The position numbers and the translations under genes are program-made. Positions 33-59,384 of a DNA stretch of 64,000 nt are shown here, piece by piece. The first letter of the stretch is position 1; each line of letters opens with the position of its first letter. Under the pieces are notes generated by a model. It was not told where the DNA came from. It searched no databases and saw only the letters and a program-made list of their open reading frames with translations. This stretch comes from a virus (Duplodnaviria > Caudoviricetes), in the IMG/VR virus record IMGVR_UViG_3300049988_000286, positions 384,001-448,000 of that record. One strand, given 5' to 3'.

Positions 33-218
33 TTATTCGTCGGAATCTTCACTGCTCGCTCCGAGAAGAAGCGCGATGAGGAGGATGCCGCCAACGAGCG
101 TCATGTACGATCCTCCCTCGCGCAAACCGAAATCTTGCAGGAAGCCACCACCGATCAGCAGCGCGGCTCCCGCGACAAAGATTTTCCCCATGGCGCGGTG
201 ACGGGCCGAATCAGGCAT
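33..218 (-). CDS. small membrane protein
   Basis: Two hydrophobic stretches; overlaps the stop of the upstream gene in the same operon. Confidence 0.5.
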   Translation of the reverse strand: MPDSARHRAMGKIFVAGAALLIGGGFLQDFGLREGGSYMTLVGGILLIALLLGASSEDSDE

Positions 219-444
219 CGGGCGTGACCTTGACGCTGCTCGCGGGCACCCAACGACCGTTGACCTGTAGCTGGCACGAGTAAGTCACCCATGTATCGGT
301 TCCATTGGCGACTACCCGCCACTGAAAGCCGCTCTCGCCCCAATCAGTCCGACAGGCGGCAGCCGCCCGCTTCCTTGAGTATTCGATCTCCTCCTTTGTC
401 AGAGAACACCCCGAGAGGAGGAGGAGCGTGAGGAGATACCTCAC
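211..444 (-). CDS. putative lipoprotein
   Basis: Signal peptide with lipobox LLLLSGC; GTGA overlap with upstream gene. Confidence 0.65.
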   Translation of the reverse strand: MRYLLTLLLLSGCSLTKEEIEYSRKRAAAACRTDWGESGFQWRVVANGTDTWVTYSCQLQVNGRWVPASSVKVTPDA

Positions 445-7691: not shown

Positions 7692-7957
7692 AGCCAGACC
7701 TTCCGCCCCCGGCAATCCGCGCTATGCTCCACCGCTGCGATCTTGAACAAGGCGGCGTTGCCGTCGTCGCGGAAGTATAACAAGGCGGCGTTATTACGAT
7801 CAACGACGTGCCTCATATACTGGTCTTCGGGCACGTTCTCTTCACACCATGCCAATACAGCCTCGATCTTCTCCGCGATATTGTCTGGATAGCGGAGCCG
7901 GTGGAAGACGAATTTGGTCCACTCCTCGCCGGTGAGGAGTTCCCGTCGATACCTCAC
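7688..7957 (-). CDS. paralogue family A protein
   Basis: LAWCEENV...LYFRDDGNAALFKI. Confidence 0.65.
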   Translation of the reverse strand: MRYRRELLTGEEWTKFVFHRLRYPDNIAEKIEAVLAWCEENVPEDQYMRHVVDRNNAALLYFRDDGNAALFKIAAVEHSADCRGRKVWL

Positions 7958-8532
7958 GTCAGGGTCCGCAAACCCGTGACATCCTCGTCGAGATCGATCT
8001 CGTGAACGGGACCAAGACCAAGACAGGTGATCGTCGGCTTCGGGCTGCCGTCATCGTTCTTGAAGACCGTCAGACCCGCGTCCTTGACCAACGAGACGCC
8101 GCAACGCTCGCGATACTTGGCTTCCAAGGCGATCAACTCCGCCTCCGTGGGGACCACCAGCGTGATCTTGAAGGCGCGCTGACTACCCCGATACGAGGCT
8201 GCCACGAGGGGGAAACGCAGAAGGCTGTCCCAATACGCATGGACGTACCCGTGCCCCCCTTGCGTGATCATCTTGCCCCGCACCCCCTTCATCTGGTCCA
8301 AGGCTTCTTTGGAAAAGATGCAATATTGCTTCAGTTTGACGCCCCGATAGCGAGCCATCCACGCCCGTTGCAGCCGCCAGCGATCCATTCCATAGTAGAG
8401 GACGCCCCCTACGGCGAGCAGAATACCACCGAGATGGGAGAAATTGTCCCCGACGAGCGCGCCGGTGATGACGAGGCCAAGTAGCCACACCTGACCGCGC
8501 TTGCGCTGTTCCTGAAATTCACCTGCCATCAT
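7954..8532 (-). CDS. pth2: peptidyl-tRNA hydrolase type 2 with N-terminal membrane segments
   Basis: GKMITQGGHG, KITLVV...EAELIAL, VKDAGLTVF, TITCLGLGP match Pth2 motifs. Confidence 0.75.
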   Translation of the reverse strand: MMAGEFQEQRKRGQVWLLGLVITGALVGDNFSHLGGILLAVGGVLYYGMDRWRLQRAWMARYRGVKLKQYCIFSKEALDQMKGVRGKMITQGGHGYVHAYWDSLLRFPLVAASYRGSQRAFKITLVVPTEAELIALEAKYRERCGVSLVKDAGLTVFKNDDGSPKPTITCLGLGPVHEIDLDEDVTGLRTLT

Positions 8533-8536
8533 CGCC

Positions 8537-9019
8537 CTACCTTGTGAAATTTAGATCAAAGAGCACCCGGTCGCCATCATCGGCGAAGGAGAACATCTCC
8601 GCGACGATCCACCTACCCGATATCTGCTCGCAGCACCACCAATAAGCGTCGATGCAACGCTGATCGAAATAGTGGATAAAGTCGCTCGTGAACCAAGTGC
8701 CGGTCTTGAGATGCGAGTCGAAGTGCTCGGGATCGTAGAGGCCCATGCGGTCCAGCAGTGCACGGCTTGAACGATCTTGCTGCGCCTCGCTGAACCCGCG
8801 CCGCCATTCTTCATTATTGAGTCGCGTCGCCGCGCAGTAGCGGACCCAATCAGGGTCGGTGATACGTCCCGGCTGTTGCACATAGGGTCCGCCGGGATTG
8901 TAGTCCTTGGTCCATTTCTCGCCAGTCTTGTAGCCCTGCTCCCAGCTTTGCCGAGCCGTCACCTTGTAGCGACGGAACGGCGCATCCCGCGAGATCATGT
9001 TGGGCGACTTCAATGGCAT
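8537..9019 (-). CDS. two-domain protein with family A C-terminal domain
   Basis: YWWCCEQISGRW...FSFADDGDRVLFDLNF; promoter TTGACT-17-TACCTC with CGAACT. Confidence 0.6.
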   Translation of the reverse strand: MPLKSPNMISRDAPFRRYKVTARQSWEQGYKTGEKWTKDYNPGGPYVQQPGRITDPDWVRYCAATRLNNEEWRRGFSEAQQDRSSRALLDRMGLYDPEHFDSHLKTGTWFTSDFIHYFDQRCIDAYWWCCEQISGRWIVAEMFSFADDGDRVLFDLNFTR

Positions 9020-9054
9020 TCGGGGGAGGTATCATCGATAGTTCGATGAGTCAA

Positions 9055-9149
9055 TGGTACGCCCGGAGGGATTCGAACCCCCAACCGTTCCGCGATCTGC
9101 GGATCATGAGGTATAAGCTCACCGCTCTAACCAATTGAGCTACGGGCGC
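9055..9149 (-). tRNA. tRNA-Ile(UAU) with long variable arm
   Basis: Cloverleaf GCGCCCG/CGGGCGT, anticodon loop CT-TAT-AC, variable arm CCGC-AGATC-GCGG, encoded CCA. Confidence 0.85.
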
Positions 9150-9183
9150 ACGAGAGCCTTGTGGCTCGATCGTCGTCGTAGCT

Positions 9184-9201
9184 TCATATCAACTGGTGCA
9201 T
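9184..9201 (-). CDS. leader minigene MHQLI (sensor codon ATA)
   Basis: TAAATA(9207-9212)+5 nt+ATG CAC CAG TTG ATA TGA, 34 nt upstream of tRNA-Ile(UAU). Confidence 0.55.
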   Translation of the reverse strand: MHQLI

Positions 9202-9209
9202 GTCTCTAT

Positions 9210-9572
9210 TTAGCGCAACGCCGCGTGGCGCGCAATAAGGATCGAGGGTAACCCCCGGCCGCGCTGCTGGCATGACCAATCCCCATACCCATCATAAGTG
9301 AGCGCGGGTTCGAGAAGTTGCAGCAAGGGTACATCGCTCTCGTCAGCGACGAACGCGAGGAAATGATTGTGCTCGACGCCGTAGCGGAACATCGCCTCTT
9401 CGCTATTCAGCCGAAGCCAAGTATCTACCTTCTCGGCCATCAGGTAGAAGGGCGGCATATCGGCGACGCTCACCGTCTTCTTTTCGTTCCAGCCCCGAAT
9501 GTAGTAGGACAAACGATGCCAACTCCGGTTGATCAACCGAGTATAGGAAAAGCGTGTCGTATCTCGGTTCAT
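9210..9572 (-). CDS. hypothetical protein (family-A-like)
   Basis: DTWLRLN...FVADESDVPLL; ATGA coupling to upstream gene. Confidence 0.55.
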   Translation of the reverse strand: MNRDTTRFSYTRLINRSWHRLSYYIRGWNEKKTVSVADMPPFYLMAEKVDTWLRLNSEEAMFRYGVEHNHFLAFVADESDVPLLQLLEPALTYDGYGDWSCQQRGRGLPSILIARHAALR

Positions 9573-9781
9573 GCAAAACGCATGTAGCACAGACGAGCGT
9601 CATCTTCACGCAGGAATTTGGCATCATGAGCACCGACCATGAAGTCCGTGCCATAACTCCCCTCTACGTTGTCGCGCATCCAATATTCGATCGTGCGAGC
9701 AAATGCTGGATCATCGATTAACATCTCGGTGAAGATCACTCGCCATTCAGTCCAAAACTGCCCGACAGCGATTGCCCTCAT
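9569..9781 (-). CDS. paralogue family A protein
   Basis: EYWMRDNVEGSY...KFLREDDARLCYMRFA. Confidence 0.7.
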   Translation of the reverse strand: MRAIAVGQFWTEWRVIFTEMLIDDPAFARTIEYWMRDNVEGSYGTDFMVGAHDAKFLREDDARLCYMRFA

Positions 9782-11917: not shown

Positions 11918-11966
11918 GCCTGATCTCCTATCACGCCAGTGCCATAGTTCGCTATAAGCTGCAAGG

Positions 11967-12293
11967 CTATAACCAACCCACGCTCTGTTTCCAGAAGTAC
12001 CCCCACCCCTTCGTGAGACCGCCATGCTGGATGGCTGCGAGAACGAAGTCGCTTTCGCGCATCAACAACGCGTGCCTGATCTCGCGACCACGTAGTTGCG
12101 ATGCTGCCAAGGATTCGCAGATCGCGAGCATCGATCTGGAACCTCGACGCTCCACCACGGCGAGTTCACACGAGGCTGTCATATCGAGTTCACAACGCAC
12201 GACAGGTATGCGTTGATCTCTAGTCCAAAGGAGGAATTCACGACAATGGCGAAAATCGCGATGCAGGGCAGTGACCCCAATGGAGCCCCTCAT
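11967..12293 (-). CDS. paralogue family B protein
   Basis: LLWTRDQRIPV...LLMRESDFVL resembles family B (EWCR..VP...IVRDRDFDLL). Confidence 0.55.
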   Translation of the reverse strand: MRGSIGVTALHRDFRHCREFLLWTRDQRIPVVRCELDMTASCELAVVERRGSRSMLAICESLAASQLRGREIRHALLMRESDFVLAAIQHGGLTKGWGYFWKQSVGWL

Positions 12294-18969: not shown

Positions 18970-19045
18970 TGGCAGGAGCGCCGAGACTCGAACTCGGAAC
19001 CTACGGGATTGGAAGCCGGTGCTCTACCAATTGAGCTACACTCCT
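18970..19045 (-). tRNA. tRNA-Trp(CCA)
   Basis: AGGAGTG/CGCTCCT, G73, loop TT-CCA-AT; only 3 paired positions in the anticodon stem. Confidence 0.8.
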
Positions 19046-19052
19046 ACAGTCA

Positions 19053-19126
19053 TGGTTGGCACGGGTGGTAATGCTCCACCGTCTCGGCTTTATCAGAACC
19101 TTGCTCTACTTTTGAGCTACGCGCCA
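19053..19126 (-). tRNA. tRNA-Ile(GAU), atypical T-loop AGCATTA
   Basis: TGGCGCG/CGTGCCA, loop CT-GAT-AA, T stem GGTGG/CCACC, CCA. Confidence 0.8.
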
Positions 19127-19540: not shown

Positions 19541-19572
19541 TATTTATACCGAAGGGGTCGCCGGGCTGTCAA
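19541..19572 (-). promoter_or_regulatory. hybrid promoter of tRNA operon (TTGACA-18-TATAAA overlapping TATAAATA)
   Basis: Read directly on minus strand; predicted +1 at or next to the leader ATG. Confidence 0.7.
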
Positions 19573-59300: not shown

Positions 59301-59384
59301 GGGTCGGCTGGACACGAGTGAGTCCACCTGACTGTAAATCAGACGCTTTGGCTGTGAGGGTGCAAATTCCTTCCCGGCCCACCA
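59301..59384 (+). tRNA. tRNA-Tyr(GUA), atypical D/T loops
   Basis: GGGTCGG/CCGGCCC, A73, loop CT-GTA-AA, V arm, CCA. Confidence 0.8.

Follow-up and report, generated by a model that had tools for sequence, protein, structure and literature searches.

This report concerns a tRNA gene with the anticodon UAU, here called tRNA(UAU), and the short leader that precedes it on the minus strand of a 64,000-nucleotide (nt) stretch of viral DNA (Duplodnaviria; Caudoviricetes; positions 384,001 to 448,000 of the IMG/VR record IMGVR_UViG_3300049988_000286). This stretch, hereafter the window, is part of one 499,572-bp contig, which CheckV rates as a complete virus record and which has a GC content of 57%, 41 tRNA genes, and one gene for transfer-messenger RNA (tmRNA). 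All coordinates are those of the window unless they are marked as genome positions. The only sequencing run that holds the whole stretch is a leaf metagenome, possibly the sample behind the assembly of the window, and relatives of the stretches 8971-9417 and 9085-9254 are found in runs X2 and X3. No RNA run is among the listed matches.

The tRNA gene is preceded by a TAAATA late-promoter box and by a five-codon open reading frame (ORF), or mini-gene, that encodes MHQLI (Table 1). The start codon of the mini-gene stands where 27 other late promoters of the phage place theirs, and the 95-nt tRNA(UAU) begins 34 nt after its stop codon. The final sense codon of the mini-gene, ATA, is the codon that the UAU anticodon of the tRNA would read. 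ATA is also the third-rarest codon of the phage, with 376 occurrences among the 121,815 codons of 464 long ORFs (3.1 per 1000), and it is present in 200 of these ORFs. A preliminary description of this DNA had proposed that the mini-gene is a single-codon sensor of the capacity to decode AUA. The elements on which it relied are all present in the sequence, the ARAGORN and Rfam annotations, and the ORF translations, and the 5-nt spacing between TAAATA and ATG is, as it had noted, the same as in two other leaders of the window, at 19546 and 59124.

Two of the described elements carry less weight. The hexamer TTGCGC, which had been read as a -35 element, matches the consensus weakly; it differs in this from the promoters of the other codon-matched tRNA leaders of the phage, where TTGACA is perfect. 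The second short ORF, which had been listed as a feature of its own, is an automatic by-product. Its start is not independent evidence because an ATA followed by TGA always creates an ATG. This ORF traverses the leader hairpin, enters the tRNA, and ends at a TAG formed by tRNA nt 8-10. A terminator scan of the segment between the mini-gene and tRNA(UAU) found none.

Table 1. Features of the tRNA(UAU) locus, its neighbors, and two comparable leaders. Positions in the last two rows belong to the loci L033 and L037.
Feature	Position	Strand	Remarks
-35-like hexamer TTGCGC	9230..9235	-	Weak; 3/6 match to TTGACA; 17-nt spacer before TAAATA
TAAATA late-promoter box	9207..9212	-	C at -1; its TAA ends the upstream ORF
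Leaderless mini-gene ATG CAC CAG TTG ATA TGA	9184..9201	-	Encodes MHQLI; GAGAC separates ATG from TAAATA
ATA, proposed sensing codon	9187..9189	-	Codon 5; cognate to the downstream UAU anticodon
Leader nt 3-13 (GCACCAGUUGA)	9189..9199	-	Predicted to pair with the tRNA D arm (nt 12-26) in minimum-energy folds
Leader nt 20-25 (GCUACG)	9177..9182	-	Predicted to pair with tRNA nt 6-11 (CGUAGC)
Second short ORF, MKLRRRSSHKALVRP, then stop	9140..9187	-	Three CGA codons; ATGA overlap with the mini-gene stop
Leader hairpin GAGCC-ACAA-GGCTC	9154..9167	-	No U tract; followed by UCGU, then the tRNA; not a terminator
tRNA(UAU)	9055..9149	-	Anticodon at 9113-9115; A73; encoded CCA; 23-nt variable region; ARAGORN; Rfam RF00005, 60.5 bits
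Variable-arm hairpin of tRNA(UAU), UCCGC-AGAUC-GCGGA	9089..9103	-	Loop shows GAU
160-aa ORF between tRNA(UAU) and PTH2	8537..9019	-	ORF call
Peptidyl-tRNA hydrolase PTH2	7954..8532	-	PF01981, E = 1.3e-9, residues 82-189
Upstream ORF, 126 aa (120 aa in protein database)	9210..9590	-	Stop codon inside the TAAATA box
L033 leader: AGGAAGGA, 7 nt, ATG AAT ACA TCT CGA ATA TCG AGC TCA GTC CAC, tRNA	11943-12065	-	
L037 leader: AAGGAG, 7 nt, ATG GAT TTT TCA CGA ATA CCT ACA GTC CAA, tRNA	167-290	-	

The promoter of tRNA(UAU) belongs to a class that is used throughout the phage genome. TAAATA occurs 171 times, and it is followed by ATG after 4 nt at 76 sites and after 5 nt at 27 (103 sites in total). A hand estimate from base composition gives approximately 1.3 expected sites per spacing, or approximately 2.6 for both, and the combination of TAAATA with ATG is far beyond chance. 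Most of these sites (91 of 103) open ORFs of at least 60 codons, and 59 of the 91 have a C at position -1. TAAATA-N4/5-ATG is the standard leaderless late-promoter layout of this phage, and the C-TAAATA-N5-ATG arrangement before tRNA(UAU) fits it. It follows that the leader transcript of tRNA(UAU) should begin with AUG and should be translated. Promoters of this kind do not need the ATG: it is missing from that of the tmRNA gene (TTGACA-17-TATAAATA; the gene lies at genome 15556-15913) and from that of the Pro/Leu tRNA cluster (TAAATA-AAAGC-ATC).

All eight of the TAAATA promoters that face tRNA genes are followed by a short ORF containing codons that are read by the downstream tRNAs. The strongest match is the leader MNTTTSSTTISWSITFG (19546), which stands before Ile, Trp, Thr, and Ser tRNAs (p = 1.4e-7), followed by MNTQSHHTYYHYHA (59124) before Tyr and His tRNAs (p = 1.8e-6) and by MNTNTTFVAGRGVVANRANRG before Met, Gly, Arg, Val, Asn, and Ala tRNAs (p = 4.5e-5). 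The remaining siblings are ...LPLLPLLPLPLL... before Pro and Leu tRNAs (p = 0.012), MTNSHALLPFEAQRQQR before a Gln tRNA (p = 0.013), MSTMTLSTRKRKRL before a Lys tRNA (p = 0.094), and MNTTYTLMERERSIG before a Glu tRNA (p = 0.21). MHQLI is the eighth and weakest case of these codon-matched tRNA leaders. Whereas the siblings span p values from 1.4e-7 to 0.21, the mini-gene offers a single ATA among four codons, and the probability of finding at least one is 0.012 by the codon usage of the phage and 0.038 by its base composition. The caution in the preliminary description that a five-codon ORF is weak evidence when taken alone is therefore well placed. Four siblings start with ATG AAC ACG (MNT), and the mini-gene starts with MHQ instead. 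Furthermore, a clear intrinsic terminator lies downstream of the Pro/Leu leader. Such a terminator is absent between the mini-gene and tRNA(UAU), and so the mini-gene cannot share the mechanism of the two other leaders of the window.

The sibling leaders also display a pattern that involves arginine. Cognate codons alternate with Arg codons in the leaders at genome positions 68432, 267639, 453685, and 25194, where the patterns are QRQQR, RKRKR, ERER, and ANRANRG and where the Arg codons are often CGA or CGC. The dicodon CGA-ATA likewise occurs in tRNA(UAU) leaders of other phages. Such a context may enhance pausing.

Judged from its sequence, tRNA(UAU) of the window is a member of a widespread two-armed family that is present in phages and mobile elements. 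Pattern scans for this family found the tRNA in 49 and 33 viral contigs, 50 metagenome contigs, and 7 genome contigs. The traits of the family are a UAU anticodon in a CUUAUAN loop and a variable region of approximately 19-25 nt with a hairpin of 4-5 bp that presents GAU in its loop, and the window tRNA has them (its anticodon loop, CUUAUAC, lies at 9111-9117 on the minus strand). A73 and a D arm like that of tRNA-Ile can also be read in its sequence. GAU is present in the variable-arm loop of 37 of the 42 distinct members, most commonly as CAGAUUA, and the stems listed differ yet stay complementary. This loop resembles the anticodon loop of the major tRNA-Ile, and the GAU arm may be a second handle for isoleucyl-tRNA synthetase (IleRS) or for a modification enzyme. 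The one named isolate with a family member is Synechococcus phage DSL-LC02, where the gene is unannotated. Xanthomonas phage Xoo-sp13 gave the best named-phage match to the tRNA, and the matching gene proved to be a tRNA-Arg. No description of a long-variable-arm tRNA(UAU) family was found in the literature.

These relatives were used to examine whether the ATA codon recurs. We considered tRNA(UAU) loci with a GC content of at least 50% and with no other tRNA in the 40 nt upstream, and scored whether a short or terminal ORF has ATA in frame at most 75 nt upstream, with other tRNAs of the same loci as controls. An in-frame ATA precedes tRNA(UAU) at 8 of 11 such loci, compared with 19 of 81 other tRNAs (Fisher p = 0.002), and the count is 7 of 10 when the locus of the window is left out. 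Across 16 parameter settings, the p value ranged from 0.0003 to 0.07. A first version of the test had given 8/10 versus 19/80 (p = 0.0008), and in that version ATA was the most enriched of the 61 sense codons, the next best reaching p = 0.019. A count of the trinucleotide ATA that ignores reading frame and covers the 50 nt before the tRNA (64 observed, 41 expected) is judged uninformative because intergenic DNA is AT-rich. Among 401 Sphingomonadales genomes, the tRNA was found in only 2, which added one new locus (L143) without an in-frame ATA.

The clearest cases are the leaders of L033 and L037, both on GC-rich viral contigs. The two leaders keep a Shine-Dalgarno sequence, the ATG, a 9-nt interval, and the dicodon CGA-ATA, whereas their spacers differ and an indel of 3 nt preserves the frame. 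In both, the ORF ends at a TAG in the D arm of the tRNA, and that of L037 is placed between two tRNA genes. CGA-ATA is also in frame in L060 and L120. The ATA-bearing ORFs that recur in other lineages have 9-19 codons or are the ends of long genes. The preliminary description had named a lack of ATA conservation before homologous tRNA(UAU) genes as an observation that would speak against it. Where this could be judged, such a lack was not seen; an in-frame ATA recurs at most of the GC-rich loci, and no such mini-gene is found in AT-rich relatives or tRNA arrays. Its proposal of a single-codon AUA sensor is thus favored in part, by the codon match of all eight tRNA-facing leaders, by the rarity of ATA, and by the recurrence at GC-rich loci.

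Folding predictions offer a way in which a ribosome on the mini-gene might influence the tRNA. The predicted minimum-energy fold of the precursor has -56.9 kcal/mol, versus -47.9 for a native-like fold composed of the leader hairpin and the cloverleaf. In the more stable fold, leader nt 3-13, 20-25, and 27-28 pair with tRNA nt 2-26, which make up the 5′ strand of the acceptor and the D arm, and this trap is favored from a transcript length of only 66-72 nt. Blocking nt 1-25, the stretch that a ribosome holding AUA in the A site would cover, is predicted to restore the acceptor arm together with the variable and T arms. Blocking only nt 1-18, as a ribosome at the start codon would, is not. The predicted pairing of nt 20-25 behaves correspondingly, in that it survives the blocking of nt 1-18 and vanishes with the larger block of nt 1-25. 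Directly after the ATA, L033 has a segment complementary to tRNA nt 2-13 (11 pairs, one bulge), and L037 has one complementary to nt 2-10 (9 pairs). Among the 41 tRNAs of the genome, the interaction between leader and tRNA is strongest at tRNA(UAU); of shuffled leaders, 2.9% pair equally well. A simple test of duplex energy between leader and tRNA was not significant, with 31% of shuffles as good. The comparison restricted to own leaders yields p = 0.002, a value that must be tempered because swap controls show that the pairing is not specific. A folding switch is the best available mechanism on these predictions, with weak statistical support (p about 0.03-0.1).

The identity of the tRNA provides a rationale for control. 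A tRNA with the anticodon UAU is poorly charged by the IleRS of Escherichia coli, and on E. coli ribosomes an unmodified UAU anticodon decodes both AUA and AUG (PMC3575796). No match to TilS was found in the phage genome, and the UAU tRNA would therefore be the phage's own means of reading AUA. The phage also encodes an IleRS just before the window (genome 379964-382717, plus strand; L134:1372-4125), which scores 624 bits against a cut-off of 621 for TIGR00392. This enzyme keeps Arg-Cys-Trp at the wobble-base contact (R888-C889-W890 in Staphylococcus aureus) and so lacks the Arg/Lys change that adapts the Mycoplasma IleRS to UAU. A limit on the amount of tRNA(UAU) would be useful because its unmodified anticodon can also read AUG (PMC3575796).

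In the mechanism that we propose, transcription from C-TAAATA would start at or next to the A of the ATG, and ribosomes would load on the 5′ AUG as on the many other leaderless messages of the phage and reach codon 5, the lone AUA. A shortage of AUA decoders would make the ribosome pause with this codon in its A site and cover approximately nt 1-25 of the leader. The covered stretch would hold both of the leader segments that otherwise pair with the emerging 5′ strand of the acceptor and with the D arm, which would leave the tRNA free to fold and to be released by RNase P cleavage. If AUA is instead decoded without delay, the ribosome would terminate at UGA and dissociate, or it might restart at the overlapping AUG and run into the tRNA. 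The leader would then trap the 5′ half of the tRNA, and less mature tRNA would result. Such negative feedback would keep tRNA(UAU) at the level needed for reading AUA. We consider it an evenly balanced question whether the mini-gene truly functions in sensing AUA for the tRNA(UAU) gene. The sequence elements, the promoter class, the codon match, and the recurrence of in-frame ATA in other lineages are observed, and the transcription start, the translation of the mini-gene, the pausing, and the folding switch are inferred from them. The fuller proposal is that the tRNA gene tunes its own maturation by a one-codon AUA test, in which the paused ribosome would license co-transcriptional folding and RNase P processing and a tRNA that may misread AUG would be held at the lowest useful level. 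It would be a terminator-free member of a phage-wide on-demand scheme, and its design would recur in unrelated GC-rich phages and mobile elements. This is more tentative, and we hold it to be a reasonable possibility that falls somewhat short of even chances.

Several observations weigh against an AUA-sensing leader. The mini-gene has only five codons with a single cognate codon, and ATA is not enriched in the late, TAAATA-driven genes (2.7 versus 3.1 per 1000). No close relative of the phage came up in the protein and contig collections that were searched: its two flanking proteins led to none in IMG/VR or in a collection of 5.8 billion proteins, and BLAST against named phages found no relative. 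Most relatives of the tRNA itself lie in tRNA arrays or in AT-rich DNA, and no mini-gene is discernible there. The folding evidence is affected as well. In cross-pair controls, the leader and its own tRNA rank only 5th and 4th of 41; four of the other tRNAs are equally good partners for the leader, and three of the other leaders are better partners for tRNA(UAU). With non-cognate leaders as the control, the p value is 0.084 for the window and 0.036 when 11 loci are combined. Moreover, RNAfold models no tertiary structure of tRNA.

The simplest competing explanation is that the locus has a plain late promoter for a stand-alone tRNA, in which the ATG is merely the usual promoter context and both the five-codon ORF and its ATA arose by chance. 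We regard this as plausible, though clearly less likely than not. The ATA taken by itself reaches only the modest p values given above, the leader lacks the terminator and the MNT-type start seen in its siblings, and its pairing with the tRNA is unspecific in the swap controls. In addition, two late promoters elsewhere (genome 277179 and 310160, plus strand) are followed by ORFs of 6 and 11 codons before ordinary genes; these may be incidental or may be small upstream ORFs, and they give a base rate against which chance mini-ORFs can be judged. Such a promoter would leave unexplained why ORFs with cognate codons follow all the TAAATA promoters that face tRNA genes. It is also at odds with the tmRNA and Pro/Leu-cluster promoters, which indicate that the ATG is dispensable, and with the recurrence of an in-frame ATA before tRNA(UAU) in unrelated GC-rich lineages. 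The last of these observations likewise bears on the idea that ribosome loading at the 5′ AUG is all that matters, either by protecting the 5′ end of the precursor or by remodeling the leader, whatever codon follows. The leaderless layout and the predicted shift in folding once the first 25 nt are covered are consistent with this idea, yet it does not explain why a rare in-frame ATA should recur before tRNA(UAU) genes, and we think it improbable.

A different reading was raised by the position of PTH2, approximately 0.5 kb downstream of tRNA(UAU) on the same strand. By analogy with the bar mini-genes of lambda, drop-off of peptidyl-tRNA(Ile) might tie up the AUA-reading tRNA and PTH2 might recycle it, so that the mini-gene would be a weapon against host translation or a sensor of drop-off. 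MHQLI, with its ATA-TGA ending, does have the form of an ORF of 2-6 codons that ends in a rare codon and a stop, and mini-genes with rare A-rich codons are known to sequester tRNA when Pth is limiting (PMC2490762). However, such a mini-gene would take the phage's own tRNA(UAU) out of use as well, it lacks a Shine-Dalgarno sequence, and the ATA-bearing ORFs that recur elsewhere are too long, or too much part of long genes, to be bar-like. The connection with peptidyl-tRNA drop-off and Pth2 made in the preliminary description is unsupported, since it consists only of proximity within a neighborhood of translation genes. This reading therefore appears quite improbable. Finally, the leader could be a classical leader-peptide transcription attenuator like the siblings before the Glu and Leu/Pro clusters, with which it shares the promoter box and spacing. 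The lack of a terminator leads us to reject attenuation: the lone hairpin between the mini-gene and the tRNA has no U tract and is followed by UCGU, after which the tRNA begins. Nor is there an arrangement that would qualify as an antiterminator, and the alternative pairing involves the tRNA body instead. The probability that this locus is a classical attenuator is therefore very small.

An AUA-sensing leader of the kind proposed here would resemble leader-peptide attenuators in its logic and, according to the folding predictions, translation-attenuation leaders in its mechanism. In leaders of the latter type, such as those of ermC and cat/cmlA, a drug-induced pause exposes a ribosome-binding site. 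The likeness would be that a ribosome pausing within a short ORF hides one arm of a helix, as is predicted for this locus, and the downstream RNA refolds without any terminator. The difference is that the predicted pause would here occur at a hungry AUA codon and that the output would be the folding and processing of the tRNA that reads this codon. With trpL, hisL, pheL, and pheM, the last of which precedes pheST, the leader would share a short ORF enriched in the regulatory codon that senses the supply of charged tRNA, a design that the sibling leaders have. It differs from them in having no terminator or antiterminator and only one regulatory codon, and in that a tRNA rather than an enzyme operon would be regulated. 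The bar mini-gene of lambda has the sequence AUG-AUA-stop, and the two have in common that a very short phage ORF has AUA as its last sense codon before the stop. The bar mini-genes, however, are toxic by-products that are revealed in Pth-defective hosts and are not located on a tRNA precursor, whereas the ORF of this phage is leaderless, has 5 codons, and lies 34 nt before its cognate tRNA.

The tRNA itself is most readily compared with tRNA-Ile2(UAU) of Mycoplasma mobile, where UAU reads AUA without lysidine or TilS (PMC3575796), and the phage, too, has no TilS match. The M. mobile IleRS is adapted (Arg865), whereas the phage enzyme keeps Trp at that position, and the phage tRNA has the extra variable-arm hairpin with its GAU loop. 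A search of the literature found no description of leader ORFs that control tRNA genes.

Several further features of the locus and of the genome deserve mention. The 160-aa ORF next to the tRNA has no Pfam match, no homologues, and no usable Atlas match or fold lead, and the N-terminal stretch of PTH2 is hydrophobic when the translation is read by eye. The 3′ end of the upstream ORF contains a terminator-like hairpin, CGGGGGTTACCCTCG followed by ATCCTTATTG (9243-9257, minus strand), which sits 30 nt before the TAAATA box and might insulate the tRNA promoter from upstream transcription. Late promoters also occur as divergent, back-to-back pairs (TATTTA...TAAATA) with leaderless genes on both strands, at genome 43815/43816, 63171/63176, 111095/111100, 422445/422462, and others.

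The tRNA complement is unusual in other respects as well. Two tRNAs have the anticodon CUA, which is of the amber-suppressor type (genome 102238-102314, plus strand, and 106351-106425, minus strand). Many are over-long for their type, including those for Met (91 nt), Arg(ACG) (91 nt), Asn (87 and 89 nt), Cys (91 nt), Gln (88 nt), and Glu (84 and 85 nt), a pattern that points to variable-region insertions as a general tendency of this phage. At three sites in the window (18970-19045 and 19056-19126 on the minus strand and 59301-59381 on the plus strand), there are one tRNA to which ARAGORN assigns the four-base anticodon tcca and two further tRNA-like genes that are recognized by Rfam and missed by ARAGORN.

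Taken as a whole, the evidence for an AUA-sensing leader before tRNA(UAU) is suggestive and does not amount to proof. Phage tRNA genes are usually viewed as constitutive passengers that correct for codon bias or replace tRNAs cut by host defenses. If the proposal is true, this phage would gauge decoding capacity codon by codon and make tRNA on demand, and in the case of tRNA(UAU) it would do so by a terminator-free mechanism in which a ribosome gates how a tRNA precursor folds. The proposal would then also explain how the UAU tRNA, which is risky since it is able to read AUG, is restrained.

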